A stretch of 64,000 nucleotides of DNA from Escherichia phage inny. Shown in pieces: positions 2,768-61,882 of the stretch. The position numbers were made by a program, and so were the translations under genes. Within the stretch, counting starts at the first letter, position 1; every line of letters starts with the position of its first letter. The DNA is taken from sequence record MN850601.1, one strand, 5' to 3'. Under the pieces are notes generated by a model. The model had not been told where the DNA came from, did not search any database, and was given only the letters and a program-made list of their open reading frames with translations.

Positions 2768-5347
2768 CTAGTGACAAGACGCCCATGAGTTACCAACATC
2801 GTAACCAGCAGTGAGAGGTACATTAAGATTGTAATACTCACCAGCTTTATTAACAGCGATAGATGCTAATTCTCCAGCACGACTGTAGGCTGTAAACCAA
2901 CCACCTTTCGGAGATTCATGTACGTTAGCCCAAATCTTGCCAGTACGTTTCTCTTCCTCTTCTTTCCAGGCATTAACCTTATCCAAACATTCTTTATCAA
3001 TTTTCTTTTGTTCTTCTGGATCATCAACTTGAGTCCAACCTAAAGATTCTTTAGAAAACCATTTAAAATGCACCAGATCACGAGTTACTTCAAGCTGTGC
3101 TTCATCGTGATATGCAATCATTTGTTGAACGAATGACTTATTTTTCCAGTCATCAACAAAAAAGTCAACAGCTAATCCTTCTTCTTCGATAAGATCGTCG
3201 TAGATAACCATTGCTCTTTTTGCACAAATAACACCACCACTCTGGAACAGAGAGTTAAGTATTGCGTGTGCAGATCGTGTAGGTACTTTTCTACCATCAA
3301 TACCAAGAATGTATTTCTTACCTGTTTTAACCCAAAAATCATGCAGACGTTCTTTAAGAAGCGCAAGAGGTTTTGCAGCTTCCCAGAAAGCATCGTATAC
3401 AAGTTGTCCTGTATACATATCACTACCTATAGTTTTTGCTACTTTTGCAGCTTGAGCACCATAAGTAATACCATACTTAACAGATTTAGCAGGGCTTCGT
3501 TCAAACTTACGACCAATAGTGTCAGAAATACGTCGAGCCATCATTGTATGAACATCATTAGGTTTTTCCAATAATAGAGCATTACAATATTCGTGTGGTT
3601 CCTGCTCGTACCGCCAACAGTAGTGTGATTCTATTTTTGCCTCAAGAGAATCAAAGTCATAACCAATTTGGAAGTATTTTGGAACTTCTACACCAAATAA
3701 GTTACGCATTTCATATCCGTACAGAGATGTTACACGTGGGATATTTGCTACTAACCTATGTTTCATACGAGACGTAGCTGCATCACACGTTGCAGCAGGG
3801 GTTGGTATACGACCATCAGCCCTTACTGCCGCCAGATAACCTTTATCGTAATCCTCTTCATCTTCTTCCCAATCAGCACCACCACCTAGGATAGAGTTTC
3901 TACGATGTTTATACGTAAGATATTGCACAATCTGCGTAGCATAAGGAAACTTTTCACCCAGTGCTTCCAAGTTAGGACAAATATCTTTCTCTTGCCCTTT
4001 TGTAAAGGAAGGGTTAGTAAGCACTTTAACACCACGACCTTTAGCTTTAGCAATACGATCTCTTAGTTTCCATTCCAAAGTTTCTGGTGTGCACTCCAGA
4101 TGATCACATCTGTCCTGGCAGAAGTTAGATGCTAATGTTTGATCAACATAGTCACGAATAGCTTTCTCCATTTGTGCTTCATCTTTCTTAATCTTAGTGC
4201 CAGATTTAAGAGTGATATCTTTATCTTTATATTCAGATGGACTCCAACCTAAACCAACTAACCAGTTTTTAATATGTGTAGTGTCGTCTAAAGTAGCAGG
4301 TACTGTAGGATCACAAATAGGTTCTTCTGCTGGAATAGGGAGTTTAAACTCTTTACCTAATGCAAATAGCCACCAACCATCTTCTTTTTGTACAAGTTCA
4401 CCAGAATGTTTCTCTGCAAACTTTATCATGTTACTTGAAGGTTCACCATTCTTTTTAAACTGTAGTTTAGGTGGAATGAATGATTTCAAATAACCTTTAG
4501 TAGCAGGTTTAGGAGGTAACACAGGTTCTGCCTCTAAACGACATGCTTCCATTCGAGCATCCAGATCACGAATATTATCTTCTGCTTGTTTCATATTGAA
4601 AGCAAAGCCACGGTGCTCTTGACGTGTAATAATATCAGCTACACGTTGTTCTAAGTTAAAGGGTTCAGACCATTTATTATAATCACCCCACTCTTCCATC
4701 AAATAACGGAATACTGCGGTGTTAGCTTTGTTATCGTAAATACAGTAATACAGCATATCTGCTGCAAATGTTTTAAATCTTTCAGTTTCAGGAATGTTTT
4801 TTCTAAAATCAATTTTAACATCCCCTCCAGCTTTCTTAGATAACTCTGCCAGACTATGACCACCGAAGCGATCAGGGTTTAGTGTCTTACTTAAGATCAT
4901 AGTATCACAAATTTCAATGTTACTATTACCCCAAGTATTGTACTTAATACTGTAGTTGAGTTTAAAAAATAATTTAATTGCCAGTAAGTCAAAGTTAATG
5001 ATGTTATGTCCAACTACTTTGGTAATTTTATAGTTTGAATTACCTTTAAATTTACCTGTTCCATTTACAAAATCAGGAAAATCTTTAAGAGGGAAATGGG
5101 TATATTCTAAATGCTCATATTCCTCCAGTCGGTATTCATACTTTCCGTCAGTCTCAACATACGGACGACCATCGAAAAGATATTTATCACCATCATGGAA
5201 AGCAATAATCTCTCCAGTATCATGACTTTCGCACACAATACAGTGCATTGCAAAACTATCTTTTAAACGATATGGACTTGCCAAGTAATCTACACTTTCG
5301 TCATTAAGCAAGTTGTTACTTTCAATGTCGAAAGTAAAAGCTCCCAT
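2768..5347 (-). CDS. DNA polymerase, family A, with 3'-5' exonuclease domain
   Basis: 859 aa; exo motif FTFDIESNN at N-terminus; motif A-like GYDFDSLEAK, motif B RSPAKSVKYGITYG, motif C AYHDEAQ. Confidence 0.9.
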   Translation of the reverse strand: MGAFTFDIESNNLLNDESVDYLASPYRLKDSFAMHCIVCESHDTGEIIAFHDGDKYLFDGRPYVETDGKYEYRLEEYEHLEYTHFPLKDFPDFVNGTGKFKGNSNYKITKVVGHNIINFDLLAIKLFFKLNYSIKYNTWGNSNIEICDTMILSKTLNPDRFGGHSLAELSKKAGGDVKIDFRKNIPETERFKTFAADMLYYCIYDNKANTAVFRYLMEEWGDYNKWSEPFNLEQRVADIITRQEHRGFAFNMKQAEDNIRDLDARMEACRLEAEPVLPPKPATKGYLKSFIPPKLQFKKNGEPSSNMIKFAEKHSGELVQKEDGWWLFALGKEFKLPIPAEEPICDPTVPATLDDTTHIKNWLVGLGWSPSEYKDKDITLKSGTKIKKDEAQMEKAIRDYVDQTLASNFCQDRCDHLECTPETLEWKLRDRIAKAKGRGVKVLTNPSFTKGQEKDICPNLEALGEKFPYATQIVQYLTYKHRRNSILGGGADWEEDEEDYDKGYLAAVRADGRIPTPAATCDAATSRMKHRLVANIPRVTSLYGYEMRNLFGVEVPKYFQIGYDFDSLEAKIESHYCWRYEQEPHEYCNALLLEKPNDVHTMMARRISDTIGRKFERSPAKSVKYGITYGAQAAKVAKTIGSDMYTGQLVYDAFWEAAKPLALLKERLHDFWVKTGKKYILGIDGRKVPTRSAHAILNSLFQSGGVICAKRAMVIYDDLIEEEGLAVDFFVDDWKNKSFVQQMIAYHDEAQLEVTRDLVHFKWFSKESLGWTQVDDPEEQKKIDKECLDKVNAWKEEEEKRTGKIWANVHESPKGGWFTAYSRAGELASIAVNKAGEYYNLNVPLTAGYDVGNSWASCH

Positions 5348-42885: not shown

Positions 42886-42899
42886 TTTTTATAGGTGTG

Positions 42900-43015
42900 T
42901 TAATGAGAATCATTTTCGTTTGTAAATGAGAATCATTATCATTTAACTATGTAAGTGATAATCATTCTCAGTAAGAGAATGAGAATCATTAGCAAATGAG
43001 AATTTTCTCATTTAG
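42900..43015. promoter_or_regulatory. cluster of five ATGAGAATCATT-type palindromic boxes (Fur-box-like)
   Basis: atgagaatcatt x2, gtgataatcattctca, aatgagaatcatt, aatgagaattttctcatt; ATGAGAATCATTATC matches 14/15 of the Fur consensus core. Confidence 0.45.
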
Positions 43016-53321: not shown

Positions 53322-53705
53322 ATGAGCAATATCATCAACCTGGCGGCTACTGTAAACGGTAAAGATTTTAACGGCGCTGTAGATCGTGATCCTATGTGGT
53401 GCTTATCAGTGTTTAAAGGTGACTTGGTTGAAGTTAGAACAACCGAAGGGTATAGCGATGATTATAAATGCGAGATCCATTTACATAACTGGTACACGGG
53501 TAAAACTTATGCGCTGAATCACGCGTTTATCGGGAAAATTGAATATCGCGAGATGATCGACGAAGAAACGGGGCAAGATTTTAGCCAGCATGTTTATATT
53601 CGTTCCGAAACATTAGCCGAACGTTTGATCGAGAAAATGAAAGCAAAAAATAAAATTAATTTATCTCATTGGATTGATATAACAAACGATCCGGCTTATA
53701 AGTAA
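53322..53705 (+). CDS. hypothetical protein
   Basis: 127 aa; GAGGAA SD. Confidence 0.55.
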   Translation: MSNIINLAATVNGKDFNGAVDRDPMWCLSVFKGDLVEVRTTEGYSDDYKCEIHLHNWYTGKTYALNHAFIGKIEYREMIDEETGQDFSQHVYIRSETLAERLIEKMKAKNKINLSHWIDITNDPAYK

Positions 53706-53719
53706 ATAACATTTCACAC

Positions 53720-53748
53720 CAGGGCGCACAAAGCGCCCTTTCTTTTTA
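53720..53748 (+). terminator. rho-independent terminator
   Basis: GGGCGC-ACAAA-GCGCCCTTTCTTTTT. Confidence 0.55.
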
Positions 53749-53951
53749 CCTAAAGAAAGATGATAGCTTTTACCTATCAAAAACGTTCACCGAAAAAAGT
53801 GAATAGATCGCGGTATCGAGCTAATCAAGGAGCAGATGAACAACCATACCATGAAGATCATAAGGCGCTTACAACGTGTTTTAGACCGCTTATTTTTAAT
53901 TTCTTCATGCAACTATCTGGCAAAAACAGCCTTTTTCTTGTCTTTCCCCTT

Positions 53952-54025
53952 AAATGATAATCATTCTTATCTATAGCTGATTATTTATGCAATAAATTGC
54001 ATAATGCAATAATGATAATCATTCC
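53952..54025. promoter_or_regulatory. two Fur-box-like palindromes
   Basis: AAATGATAATCATTCTTATC and ATAATGATAATCATTC against consensus GATAATGATAATCATTATC. Confidence 0.45.
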
Positions 54026-54319
54026 TAACTTAAGACCATCTAACCTATAAAATAATAAGTTATCTAACTAAATTAAAACTAATTATCTCACTTTTATTTA
54101 TAACTTACTGTTACTATCTCATTGATAACATTGTATTAAACAACAATAACTAATATAAATCATTACTAAGCTAAATATAATCTATCTAACCCTTAAAACT
54201 ACAATTATAATCTATCGAATTGTTGCACAAAGTAACTATTAAATTGTTAGTAACATTACTAAATAATTCACATCCTATCTATTTATGATCTAATCTTTAC
54301 CTTCCTATCTATTACTTAG

Positions 54320-54371
54320 ATAATCATTTCATACAGTAACCATTTCATGTAGTAATCATTCCATACAATAA
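54320..54371. repeat. three tandem ~17-bp iteron-like repeats
   Basis: taatcatttcatacagtaac / catttcatgtagtaat / cattccatacaataac. Confidence 0.6.
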
Positions 54372-54503
54372 CTATAACAAGAAATATAATTCGCAAGCGT
54401 ATCATTAGCAGCCTATGCCGGACACATAGGCGGCTAATAATAACGCAACTACACACCCCACATAATAACCATCACCGATAGTCATTATTTGTGCTTATGT
54501 AGC

Positions 54504-54563
54504 TTGCAACAACTGCAAGCGCAACAATATACAATTGTATATTGTATCCCTTACATTGTTGCG
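54504..54563. repeat. nested inverted repeats around a perfect 20-bp palindrome
   Basis: TTGCA-ACAAC-TGCAA; GCAACAAT ... ATTGTTGC flanking CAATATACAATTGTATATTG. Confidence 0.6.
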
Positions 54564-54892
54564 GTGCGTTATTATTAGCTAATGTTTAGAACATTGGCTA
54601 TAATATAAGCTAAATAATAAGCTATACAATAATAAACATCGTGAATAATGATGCTGATGATCATAATGCGCCACCTTCCAGGGGGCGCTATGTGAACACA
54701 AAGAAATCTTTCTTGTCAAGAAAAATATTAACACTATTGCGCAAAATTATTTATATATGAATAGATGGTTTTTCATACTATTGTTATTATTTATCGGGCA
54801 TAGTTATAGCCTATTTGTTGAGCCTACTCTTTTAAAAGCGCAATAAAGTAGAATTATCTTGATTTTTAGTCGGTTTTATAGTACAGAAAGTA

Positions 54893-54915
54893 TGCAAATG
54901 ATAATCATTATCAAC
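54893..54915. promoter_or_regulatory. near-consensus Fur-box-like palindrome
   Basis: AAATGATAATCATTATC matches 16/17 of Fur consensus TAATGATAATCATTATC. Confidence 0.5.
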
Positions 54916-55078
54916 TATCTTCCACGGGTGGCACTATTTCACGCCAGATCATTTCATTTGGCAAGGTGTATATAGATGTTTAGACTTGCCAAGCCATTGA
55001 TTTACTTAGAATTTATCTGTTTTGTTGTGAGTAGTACCTTTCTTGCTCAGAAAATAATCAAAAGTCTTATAAGTCATT

Positions 55079-55110
55079 GAATGATAATGCAAATGATAAT
55101 TATTCTCATT
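55079..55110. promoter_or_regulatory. tandem Fur-box-like half-sites
   Basis: GAATGATAATGCAAATGATAATTATTCTCATT. Confidence 0.4.
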
Positions 55111-55229
55111 GATATTTGAGGGGGACGGTCGGCAGAAATCGGGGGGGCGCTGAAAATCGCGTTAAGCACCTCTCGCAAGCGAGCAGTGTTTTGCGGCAAG
55201 TTATTGATATTATTGACTTTACGCTTATG

Positions 55230-55342
55230 AAAAGGGGGTGTGTCGAAATAAATCGGGTATACCGGAAAATTTTTGTGGCATAGATATTTATTTGTCTATA
55301 TTATGTACAAAGGGGTGTGTTAAAAATAATAGGTATATATAG
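55230..55342 (+). promoter_or_regulatory. two copies of conserved motif AAAGGGG(G)TGTGT-N11-12-GGTATA upstream of rightward late-type block
   Basis: aaagggggtgtgtcgaaataaatcgggtata and aaaggggtgtgttaaaaataataggtatata; partial third copy near 42489. Confidence 0.35.
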
Positions 55343-55470
55343 AATAATTGATAGGGAAATCCTATACTAATCCCTCCATTAATGATGTTCCTAGATTACT
55401 GTTCTTGTAATAGATGAAAAGACGCTGTATAATGTGTGGCATGAAACGTAAACTTATAAAGGAGTCTGAT

Positions 55471-55848
55471 ATGTGTGTCCCTCTCAGCAGTCCACTGCTG
55501 TTAGAATTTTACAAAGCATGGATGGAAGATCATTCCTCAATGCATCGTGAGAATGTTGGTTTGTGTATTTGCCTTATGGATTATCTGGCAACCACTATGT
55601 CAAAGAAAAAACCTACGCAAGAAGATATAGAACATTTCAAGATGGTTCGTAGTAAAACGTTAGAAGAGATGAAATTGCAATTCACGTGTGCTGGGCTATC
55701 CTCCTTCCTGCCCTTTAATGATGACCTTCTGTGTTATGAAGATGAAGGTAAGAAACATTCTTGCCATACTAACCCAGGGAGATTGCAGTGGGTGAAAGAT
55801 CGTATTGCCGATTCATGTTTGGTGTTAGGGGGTGGTAATGAAAAGTAA
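55471..55848 (+). CDS. hypothetical protein, paralog family A (LLEFYKAW...CHTN..RLQWVKDRI)
   Basis: Track ORF 55414..55848 trimmed to ATG with AAGGAG SD (MCVPLSSPLLLEFYKAWMEDH...). Confidence 0.55.
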   Translation: MCVPLSSPLLLEFYKAWMEDHSSMHRENVGLCICLMDYLATTMSKKKPTQEDIEHFKMVRSKTLEEMKLQFTCAGLSSFLPFNDDLLCYEDEGKKHSCHTNPGRLQWVKDRIADSCLVLGGGNEK

Positions 55849-56206
55849 TATTCCGTTGAGTAGTGCAGCTTTAATACGATTCTATAAAGCATGGATTGCC
55901 AACCATCCGGCAATGAATCGCACAACGAGTGGCTTGTGTGGTTGTCTGGTAGATTATGTAGATGATTTTGTTGGCGAGGTAACTAGAGAAGAAGATAAAA
56001 GATGGCGTGATCGTTTGTTGGATAGTTTGAAATACGAAATGAGGAAACAATTTACATGTGCAGGACTGGACTACAATCTTCCGTTCAATGTAGATTGCAT
56101 GGATTACCTTTCAGAGTGTATAGACTTGGCGTGTCATACCAACACGTTACGTCTTCAATGGGTGAAAGACAGAATCGAAGATGCAAATAATGCTTGCATT
56201 GAATAG
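55838..56206 (+). CDS. hypothetical protein, paralog family A
   Basis: Track ORF trimmed to ATG (MKSNIPLSSAALIRFYKAWIANH...); shares GLCGCLVDY, FTCAGL, LPFN, CHTNTLRLQWVKDRIED. Confidence 0.55.
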   Translation: MKSNIPLSSAALIRFYKAWIANHPAMNRTTSGLCGCLVDYVDDFVGEVTREEDKRWRDRLLDSLKYEMRKQFTCAGLDYNLPFNVDCMDYLSECIDLACHTNTLRLQWVKDRIEDANNACIE

Positions 56207-56276
56207 AAATGTCTGTACACTGTGTTCCATAAGATATGCAATATCGCGCATAACAAACTACTAATGAGAGGTGTAA

Positions 56277-56594
56277 ATGAGAACCTTAGCTTTGTATATT
56301 GATCCTCACTCCATTCGAGAAATGCGAGATGTACAACAGGACTATGAATTCTACCCAGAAATTTGTGAACGCTATGAAACTATTCTTAGTTCTGTAGAAG
56401 ATCCAGATACTAGTGAAACAGGTGTTTCCCACTTACTGTGGATGTTGAATGAAATTCAGGATGGGTGTAATGGTATGTCTGAAACCAAACGCCATCGTTG
56501 GCTAGGCTATATTCAGGGTGTTATGGTTATGAAAAACCTTATTACAGTGAATGATGAACGTAATGCTACACGCCCTGTCTTTAATGGAGCATAA
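56277..56594 (+). CDS. hypothetical protein
   Basis: 105 aa; GAGAGG SD. Confidence 0.55.
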   Translation: MRTLALYIDPHSIREMRDVQQDYEFYPEICERYETILSSVEDPDTSETGVSHLLWMLNEIQDGCNGMSETKRHRWLGYIQGVMVMKNLITVNDERNATRPVFNGA

Positions 56595-56595
56595 C

Positions 56596-56811
56596 ATGAA
56601 AAGCATTCAGGTGTGTATTGAAAATAATTGTGGTTATCTGGGGTTGACACACGTTGCTTTCCCTCTTATGTTAGATGCCGATATCGCTTACAGCGGAGTT
56701 GCTTATGTGTCATTCAAGACAATGAGCCAAGTACCTGGCTGGAAGTGGGAAGTAGTTGATGTTGTTGAAGGAGAAGACTATGTTTTCCTTCCACACGAAT
56801 ATACTGTTTAA
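56596..56811 (+). CDS. hypothetical protein
   Basis: Track ORF 56551..56811 trimmed to ATG (MKSIQVCIENN...). Confidence 0.5.
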   Translation: MKSIQVCIENNCGYLGLTHVAFPLMLDADIAYSGVAYVSFKTMSQVPGWKWEVVDVVEGEDYVFLPHEYTV

Positions 56812-56826
56812 AAAGAGGAAAAGAAG

Positions 56827-57003
56827 ATGGATAAACAAACTACTGTATACTTAGTAACAAAGAATACCCCAGGCTGGAGCCAATGCAGCACTGTACCTTA
56901 CAAAATCTGTGCAACATTAGAACTAGCACAACGTGCAGAAGCAGAAGTGAATGCCATGCAATACAGCTATGGTGAAATCATTCCTTTTACTCTTGAACAA
57001 TAA
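56827..57003 (+). CDS. small hypothetical protein (about 58 aa)
   Basis: Below track cut-off; AAGAGGAAAAGAAG upstream; MDKQTTVYLVTKNTPGWSQCSTVPYKI... Confidence 0.4.
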   Translation: MDKQTTVYLVTKNTPGWSQCSTVPYKICATLELAQRAEAEVNAMQYSYGEIIPFTLEQ

Positions 57004-57014
57004 GGAGTTGTGTA

Positions 57015-57467
57015 ATGTTTGAAATTGGTAAAGTGTATCGTTTTAAGAACCCATCTTATATCCGTAAGTTTGCTAACGTGTCTGAGTGCAATAGCAGGAT
57101 TGCTTCTTTTTTAGGTGATTCCTATTTTCGTGTATTAGATGTGGATGACTGGTATGGTGTCACTGCTTTGCAATCCTTAGCAGGAGAACAAGAAATTATC
57201 GCTCAAAATGAAGGAGACTTTCTTCAGTGTTACACGTTACTTGCAAAAAGTGAGTTTGAGTATTTTGTAGAAGTCTTAGAGGAAGCACCAAAAAGTAAAC
57301 ACGAAGAGAAATACCTGCTTGTAGTGGATGGAGTTCCGATCATGGAAACCATCTCCCGTGAGGAAGTTGAAAAAGAGGCGAAACGTTACAAGCTGGATCG
57401 TACACAGAGTGTAGTTGAAGTCTATTCTCTTGTTGGTGTTGCAGATATTAGTGTGAACATCGTATAA
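57015..57467 (+). CDS. hypothetical protein
   Basis: 150 aa; AAGGAG SD. Confidence 0.55.
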   Translation: MFEIGKVYRFKNPSYIRKFANVSECNSRIASFLGDSYFRVLDVDDWYGVTALQSLAGEQEIIAQNEGDFLQCYTLLAKSEFEYFVEVLEEAPKSKHEEKYLLVVDGVPIMETISREEVEKEAKRYKLDRTQSVVEVYSLVGVADISVNIV

Positions 57468-57470
57468 TAT

Positions 57471-57683
57471 ATGTGTAATGACAGATACATTCTTCGTGTA
57501 TCTGATAAGTCTCCTATGTTTGACTGGCGGGGCTGGTGGCTACTAGCTCCGATGCAAGGTCTGACAGACGTGGAAAAGGAGGCTTATGTGTATACAAAAG
57601 AAGAGATAGAAGATAGCCTTTATTTGACAGATAACATTAAGAATGGTATCTTTGAGTGTAAATTGAAAGGAGAGGAAGAATGA
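57471..57683 (+). CDS. hypothetical protein
   Basis: 70 aa; no clear SD. Confidence 0.4.
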   Translation: MCNDRYILRVSDKSPMFDWRGWWLLAPMQGLTDVEKEAYVYTKEEIEDSLYLTDNIKNGIFECKLKGEEE

Positions 57684-57979
57684 CTATTACAGAAAAACTG
57701 CGCTGTATTGCAAAGCAAAGTGGAGAAGGTTTATGGTTTCCTATTGAGGAAATTATTCAGGACTGTTATGATCAGGCTAAGACTGGCAAATACTCCAAAG
57801 CATTTAAACCGTCTGTTTTCGGTTTGGATGACTATCCAAAAAATGAACAAGCAAAGAAACGACAAGTTGATTTGATTGATCTTGCTATGGAAGCACTACG
57901 AGAGCATGGGCTTAGTAAGGTGTATGCTTTAAACACCAAAGAGGGTTTTGTAGATTCAGTGATCGTAGATTGGTATTAA
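57680..57979 (+). CDS. hypothetical protein
   Basis: 99 aa; AAAGGAGAGG SD. Confidence 0.55.
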   Translation: MTITEKLRCIAKQSGEGLWFPIEEIIQDCYDQAKTGKYSKAFKPSVFGLDDYPKNEQAKKRQVDLIDLAMEALREHGLSKVYALNTKEGFVDSVIVDWY

Positions 57980-57988
57980 GGAGAGATC

Positions 57989-58207
57989 ATGCAAGACAAC
58001 AGTGGATGTAACCTGACTGTAGGTGATACTGTTATTTACACACCGATGAAACCCAATGATTTTCCTATGCTCGGTACTGTTGTAGATATTACAGACCGTT
58101 TTGTCACCATCTCTACAGGAGATATGCAGGTTGTACGTGATCGCAGAAATATCACCCGCTTTACGGACACTAAAACAACATCTGAGAAGTGGTATCCTGT
58201 ACACTAA
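57989..58207 (+). CDS. hypothetical protein
   Basis: 72 aa; AAGGAGAG SD. Confidence 0.5.
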   Translation: MQDNSGCNLTVGDTVIYTPMKPNDFPMLGTVVDITDRFVTISTGDMQVVRDRRNITRFTDTKTTSEKWYPVH

Positions 58208-58221
58208 AAGGAGTGTGTAAC

Positions 58222-58563
58222 ATGAAAAGCAGCCCCTATTTGCTAGAATTTTATAAGTGGTGGTTAGAACAAGAAGATACAAACTTTAGCAAAAAGCATT
58301 ATGGTCTTTGCACGTGTCTTGTAGACTTCTTATACAATATTGCTTGGATAAAAGATGTTGAGAGTGTATCAAAGCTCCAATCCTCTGTACGAGAGGAAAT
58401 GAAGGAACAGTTTAAGAAAGCGGGTTTGAACCATTTACATCCGTTTAATACGGATTTCTCGCACTACTTTACGGAAACAGAACTAGGCATTGCACACCTT
58501 AATAAAGAACGTGTACAATGGGTGATTGATCGTATTCGTGATATGGAGGAATACAATGGTTAA
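58222..58563 (+). CDS. hypothetical protein, paralog family A
   Basis: Track ORF trimmed to ATG (MKSSPYLLEFYKWWLEQ...); GLCTCLVDF, LHPFN, RVQWVIDRIRD. Confidence 0.55.
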   Translation: MKSSPYLLEFYKWWLEQEDTNFSKKHYGLCTCLVDFLYNIAWIKDVESVSKLQSSVREEMKEQFKKAGLNHLHPFNTDFSHYFTETELGIAHLNKERVQWVIDRIRDMEEYNG

Positions 58564-58765
58564 GTTTAAAACTTTCTGTGCAATCACTGTTTGTCTTATT
58601 CTTGCATACGTGTTATTCTCTAGTATCATTCGTTTAGGTGAGTATATGGCAAGAGAAGCTCGTGAAAGTGAAGCTAAAAAAGAACAGTGCATCGTGTTAA
58701 AGCACCAAAGGGATGCTGAAAAATTTCTTGAACAGGATTGTGGGCGCTATGTGAATTATAATTAG
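58556..58765 (+). CDS. small membrane-anchored protein, paralog family B
   Basis: Track ORF trimmed to ATG (MVKFKTFCAITVCLILAYVLF...); C-terminus KEQCIVLKHQRDAEKFLEQDC matches 63553..63777. Confidence 0.5.
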   Translation: MVKFKTFCAITVCLILAYVLFSSIIRLGEYMAREARESEAKKEQCIVLKHQRDAEKFLEQDCGRYVNYN

Positions 58766-58774
58766 GAGGGAAGT

Positions 58775-59023
58775 ATGTTAGATATTTTTACCTTTGATCG
58801 TGTTGGTACACCGATTACCGAAGAAGAACGTACCAAAATTGAACAAGAATTGGATGCTTTACGTGCGTCTCTTACAGACACAGCCTCACTACAACGTGAA
58901 GCTGCACATCTCACAGAGATCACTGGTATTCAGTGGAACACGGAGTGGGTTGTAATTACAATTGAAGCGGATATTTGGGGACATGAAGAGACGCTACGTA
59001 CCGGAGTAGTAACGGTTTGGTGA
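58775..59023 (+). CDS. hypothetical protein
   Basis: 82 aa; AGGAGGG SD. Confidence 0.55.
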   Translation: MLDIFTFDRVGTPITEEERTKIEQELDALRASLTDTASLQREAAHLTEITGIQWNTEWVVITIEADIWGHEETLRTGVVTVW

Positions 59024-59069
59024 TAGATGTTATTCTTTTGTGTTTCTTGATATATAAATAGGAGGGTTT

Positions 59070-59294
59070 ATGGTAAAACGTCTGGAATGGGATGCGTGTA
59101 CTGCTCACGCTTGTCACTGTGATATTGTTGAAGATCCTAATGGAGAGATGGTGTATTATGAGGATTACGAAGCATTGCACAATGCTGTGATTGCTTTACT
59201 GGATGATATTAGCTCACGCTATCCAGGACAACAATTCACGTGTCCACATATCCAACTATTAGCCGAACTTACGGAGTATCCAAGTGTTCCATAA
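59070..59294 (+). CDS. hypothetical Cys/His-rich protein
   Basis: 74 aa; AGGAGGG SD; CTAHACHCD ... CPH. Confidence 0.5.
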   Translation: MVKRLEWDACTAHACHCDIVEDPNGEMVYYEDYEALHNAVIALLDDISSRYPGQQFTCPHIQLLAELTEYPSVP

Positions 59295-59295
59295 T

Positions 59296-59463
59296 ATGGG
59301 TGTCCCTGAACAACTGCTCTTTATTGTAGGATTAGTAGGCTTATTGGCGGCTGGCGCTAAAGCCGCTTCTCACACGCATTACATAATGTTAAGATTTCTG
59401 TTCCTACTCCCTTCTATCCTTGTATTATTAGTCATATTGATTGATAACATTTTTCACAATTAA
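59296..59463 (+). CDS. tiny membrane protein (about 55 aa), speculative
   Basis: MGVPEQLLFIVGLVGLLAAGAKAASHTHYIMLRFLFLLPSILVLLVILIDNIFHN. Confidence 0.3.
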   Translation: MGVPEQLLFIVGLVGLLAAGAKAASHTHYIMLRFLFLLPSILVLLVILIDNIFHN

Positions 59464-59472
59464 GGAGAGGTT

Positions 59473-60057
59473 ATGAGTAAAATTATACCAAGCAGTTATG
59501 AATTATTGCAGTTTTATGTATATTACTTAGACTGGGTTAATAGATCGAATGTTAAAGACAATGCGATGTTTAGTAAAAACATCTGTTTAACAGAAAGTAT
59601 CTTCCGTTATTGGCACACAGGCAGAAAGTGTACACACAGTGAAGCTATGCGCATTGTAGGTGAATACCTGGAGCAATTGCAAAAAGCAGAACTTCCTGTC
59701 CTTCACCCATTCAACGAATCTAAAGAAGAATTAGAACAAGAGTGTAGAGAAGGTAAGTGCCATTTAAATGAAAAACGTATCGAATGGGTGAGGCAACGTT
59801 TAGCCGATGCAGGGAATCCTCCTAGTGACTCTGACTATACGTGGTATGATGTAGAGGGTTTAGTTCAAGGTTTTGAGGCTTGTGCTATAGGTAATACCAA
59901 CTTTGCCAAAGTTTTATGCGAGGTTTATGATCTGGCAGATAAAATCCGAAATCACGGATGGAAACAAGAGCATAAAGAATCATATGAACGCCTTGACAAG
60001 ATTTTCAAACAGATCTATTCTAACCACAAAGAGATGTTCCAAATGGAGGATGTGTAA
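59473..60057 (+). CDS. hypothetical protein, distant member of paralog family A
   Basis: 194 aa; AAGGAGAGG SD; LLQFYVYYLDW, LHPFN, RIEWVRQRLAD. Confidence 0.55.
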   Translation: MSKIIPSSYELLQFYVYYLDWVNRSNVKDNAMFSKNICLTESIFRYWHTGRKCTHSEAMRIVGEYLEQLQKAELPVLHPFNESKEELEQECREGKCHLNEKRIEWVRQRLADAGNPPSDSDYTWYDVEGLVQGFEACAIGNTNFAKVLCEVYDLADKIRNHGWKQEHKESYERLDKIFKQIYSNHKEMFQMEDV

Positions 60058-60743
60058 TGAAAGAGATTATGTTTGAAGGGCATCGTTACGAAGTTCCAGA
60101 CAATGCAAATTTCATGGCTCGTGATATCACTGGAGATGTGTTCTGGTTTGAAGATGAACCTGTGTTTTCTTCGAACAAACACTGGTTTTCACAACAATCT
60201 TCTTCGGAAAATATGACTTTTGGCTACGTAGAGCCTAAAGTGCGCTGCAAAGCAGCTTCTTCTTTGGTAAAAATTTCCCAAGATGATCAAGAAAATACTC
60301 CAGATGTTGTTAGTGCACTACTGAAGTACATTGCAGAACTTGAGAAGAAAATTAAAGAAGCAGAAACTAAGGTGAAAGCACGATCAGCCATCATTGAAGC
60401 TATGTCTGAACGTATCTTAGAGCTAGAAGATTTGTGTGGAGAGGCTTATCAAGTGGTTGGTGCGCTGGCTTGTGAAGCACAAATGTTTGAAACTTCAGAA
60501 CAAGTTTCACATATGTTAGATAATTTGAGTGAATGTAAAATGATTCATGATGATGTATTGCCATTTTGTTGCAATGTTAACAAAACAGAGCAAACACAAG
60601 ATTCAGAAACAGTTTATGTTCCGCTAATGTGTGTTCCAGATCATCTAAAAGGTGTATTCTCTTGTAAATGGTCGCTGTTGAGCGTTACTAATTGTGGTGA
60701 AAACTATTCTGCCAACATTGAATTGCTAAAACACGTTAAATAA
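60057..60743 (+). CDS. hypothetical Cys-rich protein
   Basis: 228 aa; GGAGGA SD; coiled-coil centre. Confidence 0.55.
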   Translation: MKEIMFEGHRYEVPDNANFMARDITGDVFWFEDEPVFSSNKHWFSQQSSSENMTFGYVEPKVRCKAASSLVKISQDDQENTPDVVSALLKYIAELEKKIKEAETKVKARSAIIEAMSERILELEDLCGEAYQVVGALACEAQMFETSEQVSHMLDNLSECKMIHDDVLPFCCNVNKTEQTQDSETVYVPLMCVPDHLKGVFSCKWSLLSVTNCGENYSANIELLKHVK

Positions 60744-60753
60744 GGAGAGTAAT

Positions 60754-61158
60754 ATGTGGTCTGTTAAAATCAAATATAATGCGCAGTATTATGGTGGAAA
60801 GCCTTACGAAGTTGTTATTTGTGACTGTATCTCTAAAGAAGTTGCACAGCTTTGTGGCGCTGGTGTTAGTGAAGCTATGAACAAAATGCATAACTCGACT
60901 GTGCGTTACCTGGATCAAGATATTCCAGAAGATGTAAATGACTATGCTTACGAAGTTATTTACAGTGAAGGTAAGAAGCTCTCTATTGAAGATGCACTTA
61001 AAGCACTACCTGCTATGTGCAGCCCAACGCCAGAAGCAGTTAAAGAGGTTTTACCAGAATCCAACCCCGATGAATATGCTTCTATGGTTGCTTCAGATAT
61101 GTGGAATCTCTGTCGAGAAACTATGATTAAAAATCTTGTGGAAATGGCGCATGAGTAA
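60754..61158 (+). CDS. hypothetical protein
   Basis: 134 aa; AAGGAGAG SD. Confidence 0.55.
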   Translation: MWSVKIKYNAQYYGGKPYEVVICDCISKEVAQLCGAGVSEAMNKMHNSTVRYLDQDIPEDVNDYAYEVIYSEGKKLSIEDALKALPAMCSPTPEAVKEVLPESNPDEYASMVASDMWNLCRETMIKNLVEMAHE

Positions 61159-61369: not shown

Positions 61370-61536
61370 TGCAAACATTTTTTATCGACAAGTTCAATAA
61401 AAGTATGAACACGTGGATGGCAACATTCACTATGCAATTTGCGTCATTTAAAGAAGCTCAAGAATGGTGCGATCAACACAAGGATTTTGATTTTTACTAT
61501 CAAGTTAATGCAAACCTTTCTCCAGAGGAGAAATAA
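61369..61536 (+). CDS. small hypothetical protein (55 aa)
   Basis: Track ORF 61348..61536 trimmed to ATG with GGGAGGA SD (MQTFFIDKF...). Confidence 0.45.
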   Translation: MQTFFIDKFNKSMNTWMATFTMQFASFKEAQEWCDQHKDFDFYYQVNANLSPEEK

Positions 61537-61537
61537 T

Positions 61538-61882
61538 ATGTTGGCTGATATTGAAATCCTTATGTACCGACAAGGTATGATCAAAATGTGGTTAGATTCT
61601 TTTAGCAACATATACTGCACAGTACGATCAGCAGACGAGCGTAAAACGCTTATTTTATCTGCTATTGTTGATAAACAACGTTTCTTCAAAGAAATTTTGC
61701 AAACAGGCTTCTCCGATGCAGGAGTAGAAATTGCAACTCTTAGTCTTGGGGTGCTGTCTTACTTGGAATCTGTTGTTTTATATGTCTTCTCTTTAGAGGA
61801 AGACTTGCAATTCGAAGCATTAAAACTTATCTTAGATGCTGCAATTGACATAGAACAAAATCGAATTGATTCTTTTGAATAA
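61538..61882 (+). CDS. hypothetical protein
   Basis: Track ORF 61439..61882 trimmed to ATG with GGAGAAATAAT upstream (MLADIEIL...). Confidence 0.5.
   Translation: MLADIEILMYRQGMIKMWLDSFSNIYCTVRSADERKTLILSAIVDKQRFFKEILQTGFSDAGVEIATLSLGVLSYLESVVLYVFSLEEDLQFEALKLILDAAIDIEQNRIDSFE

Follow-up and report, generated by a model that had tools for sequence, protein, structure and literature searches.

Undiscovered functions of host takeover and counter-defence reside mainly in the early regions of phage genomes. In coliphage N4 the early region, including the position of gp3, is transcribed by an injected virion RNA polymerase (PMC4496689), and gp3 itself, encoded at 1214-1528 of the N4 genome as the third gene from the left end, is a protein for which no published function was found in the literature. 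A related domain gene is met in the PL operon of a P22-like prophage, where N, cIII, erf and abc2 are followed by a gene that matches Ead_Ea22 faintly, the domain gene, a DUF551 gene and int. The C-terminal domains of Ea22 proteins were described in terms of 'portable domain' mosaicism (PMC10834534), and the modularity of the N4-gp3-like domain agrees with this. The present analysis concerns a stretch of 64,000 nucleotides from Escherichia phage inny (MN850601.1; the whole stretch is called the window), which encodes four small homologous proteins with this domain, termed pA, pB, pC and pD (Table 1). The reading preferred here, with a probability of roughly 0.45, is that they are early accessory effectors directed at a conserved cytoplasmic host target, with variable surfaces specific to each paralog.

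The window comes from a phi92-like myovirus of E. coli; across 55000-60500 it is 99.0% identical to Escherichia phage EmilieFrey (BASEL Bas61) and 95-98% identical to many other Justusliebigvirus genomes (phi92-like, Stephanstirmvirinae). In all annotated relatives the block forms a one-strand array of small genes labelled 'hypothetical protein'. The four open reading frames (ORFs) listed in a preliminary description of the stretch are all present on the plus strand, the start codon given there is preceded in each by a Shine-Dalgarno sequence at a distance of 6-9 nt (AAGGAG for pA), and the boundaries of pA and pB match the GenBank coding-sequence annotation of close relatives (for pA in phages Paula, ESCO32 and outra). 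Since the start of pB overlaps the end of pA by 11 nt, translational coupling of these two genes is possible.

The preliminary description saw in these proteins a four-member family with pD as the more distant copy, and pairwise BLASTP, with E-values scaled to a database of 1e8 residues, confirmed this. Significant similarity was found between pA and pB (E 2e-27, 46% identity), pA and pC (E 8e-21, 43%), pB and pC (E 7e-16, 38%) and pC and pD (E 7e-6, 30% over 114 residues), and the match of pD to pA or pB was marginal (E 0.003-0.01, C-terminal half only). The homology of pD is nevertheless settled, because the independent profile phrog_2510 matches all four proteins at E <=5e-18 (pA 3e-21, pB 8e-24, pC 1e-25, pD 5e-18); pD is also a full-length member of phrog_27059 (E 1.5e-138). 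A hidden Markov model (HMM) of the family, built from 111 sequences, scores the four at 102-119 bits (pA 106), and neither this model nor one built from the four proteins detected a fifth copy among the ORFs of at least 40 aa in the 64 kb. It is thus a true paralog family that lies, as had been proposed, within an accessory block of small genes with no function assigned. In phage outra the orthologues of pA, pC and pD are annotated with VOG7392 (pVOG 7392), which means that the family is catalogued but uncharacterised; the window sequences are already deposited, the genes being 99% identical to those of a deposited phage, and the family is already clustered in both PHROGs and pVOGs.

That the family could not be recognised from its letters is borne out by the curated collections. 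Pfam returned nothing for the four proteins or for any of the 111 relatives, and nothing useful for 10 fusion proteins; the models for Ead/Ea22 (PF13935) and DUF551 (PF04448) in particular do not match pA-pD. The NCBIfam scan gave chance-level matches only, and the profile search of PDB sequences no match (best E 0.32). The PADLOC defence models did not match pA, pB or pC, and their single match to pD (DzbA, E 0.015) is at chance level and confined to the C-terminal extension. No mention of the identifiers PHROG 2510 or 27059 was found in the literature.

The size of the family was taken from HMMER, run exhaustively against 1.84 billion cluster representatives: 1016 clusters (50% identity) have E<=1e-3, and 326 of them E<=1e-10; at least one match, P0033 (2115 aa), was rejected as a spurious repeat protein. 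A word-indexed search had found 29 relatives only. The typical member is a stand-alone protein of 100-125 aa with a domain of about 105 aa. By tblastn the domain is present in 178-226 phage records, mostly in several copies per genome; tblastn and BFVD together place it in Stephanstirmvirinae and Vequintavirinae (phi92-like, phAPEC8-like and rV5-like myoviruses), in N4-like podoviruses and T1-like siphoviruses, and in phages of Rhizobium, Erwinia, Achromobacter, Pectobacterium, Burkholderia and Delftia. The family also includes coliphage N4 gp3 (tblastn E 1e-7; family HMM 66.8 bits; phrog_2510 E 8e-24). It is phage-restricted, with an occurrence on 1 of 72,556 plasmids. A degenerate pattern scan of 185,579 bacterial genomes yielded no confirmed locus, a scan of IMG/VR gave three loci only, and complete E. 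coli genomes searched with the prophage module DNA gave no match. The source names of 10 clusters read 'hypothetical' or 'DUF551' only, the genomic context of three distant members consists of arrays of unannotated small ORFs, and the domain is absent from the descriptions in a polyvalent-protein survey. In the literature and annotation found, neither the true size of the family, nor the link to N4 gp3, the single invariant Cys and the lack of a solved relative are stated; the same applies to the leading-end position and the recombination-driven change of copy number discussed below.

The domain also occurs outside stand-alone proteins. Seven proteins (P0021, P0022, P0034, P0038, P0044, P0068 and P0085) contain two or three copies per chain, Av05_0048 of phage Av-05 carries the domain behind DUF551, and it occurs internally in mosaic proteins, the N-terminal module of these proteins being annotated EaA/EaD in Salmonella phages. 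The domain is a fusion partner or neighbour of Ead/Ea22 and DUF551, not a member of either family.

Conservation was computed over 111 diverse members and is given in pC numbering. Tyr11, Pro74, Phe75 and Arg97 are present in 100% of them, followed by Cys30 (99%), Leu7, Gly28 and Leu29 (98% each), Phe10 and Trp100 (97%), Gln63 and Phe64 (96%), Val101 (95%), Glu59 and Leu69 (94%), Asn94 (92%), Ser4 (91%), Tyr82 (88%), Glu85 (81%) and Asn76 (77%). The motifs quoted in the preliminary description (LLEFYKAW ... RLQWVKDRI) are real, and the wider signature, S-S...L..FY..W / G-L-C / E-M..Q-F..A-G-L / P-F-N / Y..E / H-x-N-x-x-R-x-x-W-V, is complete in pA, pB and pC; pD keeps it except for G-L-C, where the alignment of 'KNICL' is ambiguous and places the Cys at 28 or 30. 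The most divergent copies are N4 gp3 and the three-repeat protein P0085; these may lack Tyr11, Glu59 and Gln63 but retain Cys30, Pro-Phe-Asn, Tyr82, Glu85, Asn94 and Arg97. Residues ~37-55, from the end of helix 3 to the start of helix 4, are poorly conserved with many insertions and deletions, and the C-terminal tails are variable too.

A scaffold of conserved Cys and His positions had also been proposed. This holds for pA and pB, but not family-wide, where Cys30 is the sole conserved Cys: Cys32 is present in 11% of members (Asn in 71%), Cys91 in 53% (pC itself has Ala) and His92 in 69%, and these three do not co-occur above chance (Fisher p 0.54). A Cys/His zinc site was rejected, since three or four metal ligands kept throughout the family would be expected and a lone conserved Cys is found.

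The AlphaFold2 model of pC, made from an alignment of 23 sequences, has a mean pLDDT (predicted local distance difference test) of 92.1 and a pTM (predicted template modelling score) of 0.85, with helices predicted at 5-16, 22-26, 29-44, 49-66, 79-88 and 95-112 and a long loop at 67-78. The ~115 N-terminal residues of pD are modelled with the same helix order (pLDDT 60-93), and its lineage-specific extension of ~80 residues with three low-confidence helices; searched alone with a word-based method, the extension found no homologue. Foldseek against the whole PDB returned nothing below E 4.7, all structural matches falling under the level usually deemed meaningful, and the best matches in BFVD were uncharacterised phage proteins that are themselves family members. 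The family has a median isoelectric point of 5.2 and a median net charge of -4.4, and net charges are about -3 to -7. A membrane protein was excluded, as none of the four contains a hydrophobic stretch fit for a membrane helix. Each domain is thus predicted to be a soluble, mildly acidic six-helix bundle. The suggestion that the paralogs determine host range is unlikely in the sense of adsorption, because the proteins are soluble and without a transmembrane segment.

The family had further been called rapidly diverging. The ratio of non-synonymous to synonymous substitution rates (dN/dS), calculated as pooled pairwise Nei-Gojobori values against the window sequence in comparisons that are not phylogenetically independent, is 0.12 for pA (6 relatives), 0.11 for pB, 0.15 for pC and 0.11 for pD (6-11 relatives overall), which is the range of the flanking genes (0.04-0.21). 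Values of 0.11-0.15 speak for purifying selection; they indicate that all four are real, selected coding genes and that the orthologues are not rapidly diverging. What varies is the number of copies. Within Justusliebigvirus there are four in the window and in Paula, ESCO32, outra, Eryne, EC_OE_11 and ESCO8, three in UAB_1 and JLBYU50, and two in arall and two IMG/VR contigs; at least seven were counted in 24 kb of a Phapecoctavirus. The genes pA and pB are absent from arall and the two IMG/VR relatives, and pC is kept in 11 of 11 relatives. In UAB_1 (651-1016) and JLBYU50 (3440-3835) a single hybrid gene with the body of pA and the tail of pB replaces the pair, with the junction inside the identical RLQWVKDRI-coding stretch common to both, and these hybrids are direct evidence for unequal recombination between tandem paralogs. 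By neighbour-joining, pA and pB form the only sister pair, pC belongs to a 20-member clade and pD joins only at the root, and pC and pD each lie nearer to proteins from other phages than to one another; a single recent expansion, as the idea of an expanded family would have it, is therefore not supported. The family in the window is old and sequence-stable, yet fluid in gene content, and its repertoire changes via gene gain, loss and inter-copy recombination, not by fast point substitution. A metagenomic protein of 166 aa (P0014) joins the N-terminal domain of pD to the C-terminus of the ORF at 61439-61882; such a fusion implies, as far as the sequence can tell, a deletion of ~1.9 kb that removed the intervening genes.

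The position of the genes bears on the time of their expression. Bases 1-979 of the Salmonella phage UAB_1 align to window 54821-55799 with 95.7% identity, and it is therefore probable that the physical left end of the genome lies near 54821. As the annotated terminal repeat of UAB_1 maps to the start of this alignment (Table 1), pA would begin ~650 bp from the end and the four paralogs would fall within the first 5.3 kb. Between the terminator-like hairpin and pA there is an AT-rich stretch of ~1.7 kb (53760-55414) that contains no ORF of credible quality and is probably the genome terminus together with the early control region; in phage Paula terminators are annotated at the position equivalent to the hairpin. 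The sigma-70-like candidate in front of pA is a pattern match only; the promoter scan of the region gave no more matches than in shuffled sequence, and Rfam returned nothing useful on 53-61 kb. Other members of the family likewise lie near the start, within a few kb, of N4-like, Rhizobium-phage and rV5-like records; the start of a record is not always the physical end. The first genes behind the left repeat would enter the cell with the earliest DNA and give the first proteins made, and the four paralogs are, to judge from this position, probably early genes.

In the proposed mechanism the paralogs would be soluble early accessory effectors, directed at the host, which bind or possibly act on a cytoplasmic target conserved across Proteobacteria. 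The site may be composed of near-invariant residues, namely Tyr11, Gly28-Leu29-Cys30 (where helix 3 begins), Glu59/Gln63, the loop formed by Pro74-Phe75-Asn76, Tyr82/Glu85 and (Cys91)-His92-x-Asn94-x-x-Arg97-x-x-Trp100, and it would be the variable stretch between helices 3 and 4 and the C-terminal tails that make the paralogs differ in specificity. The traits behind this proposal are that the proteins are soluble, small, phage-restricted, dispensable in some relatives, located at the leading end or in the earliest operon, and modular; the signature is conserved from alpha- to gamma-proteobacterial phages. What we infer, then, is early expression, a host-directed function, the binding site and the differences in specificity among paralogs. 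Several points weigh against such an effector. No family member with a tested function and no expression data for this phage were found, and terminus proximity and a single promoter-like match are poor indicators of timing. The conserved polar residues share helical faces with hydrophobic residues of the core, so that they could form a buried structural network and not a binding site. A housekeeping or phage-internal role would account for the purifying selection, and for conservation that reaches from phages of Rhizobium to coliphages, at least as readily as an arms race. The phi92-like phages are exceptionally sensitive to restriction-modification (PMC8594841), and Bas60 is blocked by a cyclic GMP-AMP (cGAMP) type of cyclic oligonucleotide-based antiphage signalling system (CBASS), with cGAMP still accumulating (bioRxiv 10.1101/2025.07.12.664507). 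An anti-defence role is possible, and these published phenotypes argue against anti-restriction and against neutralisation of cGAMP CBASS. The more specific proposal, that the proteins have a previously unrecognised fold in which a Cys30/Arg97/Tyr11/Pro-Phe-Asn site sequesters, or chemically inactivates, a host immune messenger or a conserved protein of defence or stress, is judged unlikely.

Among the alternatives, the proteins may be binders or cleavers of a small molecule, that is sponges or Cys-dependent enzymes for a nucleotide immune signal or an alarmone, in which paralogs and tandem fusions would cover different ligands and the pockets would lie between protomers. The family shares the general traits of sponges, being short, phage-restricted, mostly stand-alone and often found in tandem fusions (bioRxiv 10.1101/2025.07.12.664507); its invariant set is rich in aromatic residues, Arg, Asn, Gln and Glu, with the 99% Cys at a helix N-terminus, and the 11-nt overlap would favour co-expression of pA and pB. 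However, there is no Pfam match to Sequestin (PF21825) or another family and no fold match to solved structures, Tad1, Tad2 and Acb2 included, the proteins are acidic overall, and Bas60, which carries orthologues of pC and pD, is restricted by cGAMP CBASS while cGAMP builds up, all of which makes such a role quite improbable. Atd1, the anti-TIR gene reported in Justusliebigvirus, was considered and set aside as an unrelated, MazG-like pyrophosphatase.

A role inside the phage programme seems quite unlikely too. Here the proteins would be regulators or adaptors that serve the early-to-middle switch, genome entry or other early phage proteins, and it is in line with this that purifying selection is strong and conservation deep, that gp1 and gp2, the neighbours of N4 gp3, are transcription cofactors (PMC4496689), and that the domain is fused to phage-only modules (DUF551 and the EaA/EaD N-terminal module). 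Against it, the copy number ranges from 2 to at least 7 in close relatives and pA and pB can be absent, which is dispensability of the accessory type. Moreover, the carriers have unrelated transcription and replication strategies (N4-like, T1-like, large myoviruses, P22-like temperate phages), so that a common phage-internal partner is hard to name.

That the paralogs are zinc-binding or nucleic-acid-binding regulators built on Cys and His is very improbable, as across the 111 members only Cys30 is conserved and pC is without Cys91, the median net charge of -4.4 argues against binding of nucleic acids, and the structural matches all stay under the meaningful level. The least credible proposal is that of anti-restriction proteins like Ocr or ArdA made from the first-injected DNA, for although the genes are at the leading end like T7 gene 0.3 and the products small, acidic and probably early, the Vequintavirinae and phi92-like phages, Bas60-62 included, are 'exceptionally susceptible' to restriction-modification (PMC8594841), the net charge is merely about -4, no solved structure has a matching fold, and the family is near-absent from plasmids, where anti-restriction genes are common.

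Table 1. Coordinates in the window of the four paralogs and of the features at the putative genome end.
Feature	Position	Strand	Remarks
Intrinsic-terminator-like hairpin	53721-53739	+	7-bp stem with 6 GC pairs, followed by a T-run; closes the preceding transcription unit
Left terminal repeat homologue	54821-55163		Corresponds to the 343-bp left direct terminal repeat annotated at 1-343 of UAB_1
Sigma-70-like promoter candidate TTGTAA-17-TATAAT	55405-55433	+	~40 nt upstream of pA; 10/12 consensus
pA	55471-55848	+	125 aa; N4-gp3-like domain; first gene past the left terminal repeat
pB	55838-56206	+	122 aa; tandem sister of pA
pC	58222-58563	+	113 aa; Phi92_gp006 orthologue; copy nearest to the family consensus
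pD	59473-60057	+	194 aa; Phi92_gp010 orthologue; divergent N4-gp3-like domain with C-terminal extension

The surroundings of the paralogs hold several further features. Near 38 kb, where the coding strand changes, the GC skew switches its sign from negative to positive, and from ~38 kb to the end of the window all genes, the paralogs included, are on the plus strand. The last gene before the terminus (53322-53705) encodes a T4 gp30.8-family protein (PF06019, E 6e-29), and a gene of this family occupies the equivalent place in the distant 154-kb relative L018. The stretch 53760-55414 contains families of direct and inverted repeats, e.g. AAGGGGGTGTGTCGAAATAAATCGG, present three times at 55118-55333, and a four-copy family AAATGATAATCATT (53952, 54010, 54896 and 55091) lies in the non-coding stretch upstream of pA. 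Sites in the window were also scored against GATAATGATAATCATTATC, the consensus of the E. coli Fur box. A Fur-box-like site with 2 mismatches to it was found at 54894-54912, inside the terminal-repeat homologue, and three further sites with 3 mismatches each near 42.9 kb (42899-42993); counting both strands there are 5 matches, compared with 0.05 expected by chance. These sites and the AAATGATAATCATT repeats could belong to iron- or Fur-responsive early promoters or serve in the titration of Fur.

Between and behind the paralogs, the gene at 57015-57467 is named 'goF mRNA metabolism modulator' in phage Eryne; its support in PHROGs is weak (phrog_2980, E 3e-6, residues 8-71) and its best PHROGs matches are families of unknown function. 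The gene at 58775-59023, ungapped in 5 of 11 relatives and mislabelled in Paula as 'M20/M25/M40 family metallo-hydrolase', shows 6 non-synonymous and 1 synonymous changes (dN/dS 1.8), far too few sites to interpret. Between pC and pD there is a Cys/His-rich ORF of 74 aa (59070-59294) with the lowest dN/dS of the block (0.04) and a weak match to 'Lar-like restriction alleviation protein' (phrog_3592, E 8e-4). Orthologues of the genes at 60057-60743 and 60754-61158 are labelled 'ead/Ea22-like' and 'DUF551' in the JLBYU50 record, and Pfam finds neither Ead/Ea22 nor DUF551 in them at E<=0.01. The first of these proteins has a coiled-coil-like centre, and the second ends with ...DMWNLCRETMIKNL, which resembles the tail ...WNACRAAMLNGGKS of P22-like EaA/EaD mosaic proteins. 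Four records of 'Campylobacter phage' (MG065639, MG065645, MG065656 and MG065689, host C. jejuni) are 96.6% identical to the window over the region; they are probably either assigned to the wrong host or contaminated.

The window adds no new sequence, and what it offers is a useful lead and a good candidate for follow-up, not a discovery. The family is unusually tractable, with about a thousand clusters at 50% identity, a sharp signature with an invariant Cys, a confident model and no solved relative, and members are at hand in two laboratory systems, N4 with gp3 and the BASEL phages Bas60-62. Definition of the target would annotate thousands of 'hypothetical proteins', and it could partly explain the behaviour of the broad-host-range phi92- and rV5-like phages that are considered for therapy. 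Should the proteins inactivate immune messengers or defences, the phi92-, phAPEC8- and rV5-like phages, with arrays of between 2 and at least 7 paralogs, would hold a specificity repertoire, and the family would represent a new and very widespread kind of counter-defence protein, for which N4 gp3 would serve as a tractable model.

How do the window proteins compare with the known systems? T7 Ocr (gene 0.3) is, like them, the small and acidic product of an early gene at the leading end of a virulent phage; the window family, however, is no DNA mimic by charge or fold, and its carrier phages are sensitive to restriction-modification. The sponges Tad1, Tad2, Acb2, Acb4 and Sequestin (PF21825) are similarly short, phage-restricted, mostly stand-alone and often found in tandem, and Sequestin is helical too, but there is no relationship of sequence or fold, the window family is acidic overall, and a phi92-like phage with two members does not blunt cGAMP signalling. 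With the mosaic proteins of the ea regions of lambdoid and P22 phages (PMC10834534) the family has in common that the domain acts as an interchangeable module and that the regions are the earliest transcribed. The four window proteins differ from them in being without an Ead_Ea22 or DUF551 domain and in lacking a fold match among solved structures, where the Ea22 C-terminal domain should be included, and the reported pro-lysogenic role of Ea22 is not open to a virulent phage. N4 gp3 (ABK54374.1; PHROG 2510), the best-known member of the family, offers a model system but not a mechanism, as no published function was found for it. It is present in single copy, is without Tyr11, Glu59 and Gln63, and belongs to early genes that use the injected virion RNA polymerase and not sigma-70-like promoters; it is nevertheless of the same domain family and of similar size (104 aa), carries the GLC...PFN...Y..E....CH.N..R..W signature, and is encoded within 1.5 kb of the left end, among the early genes.

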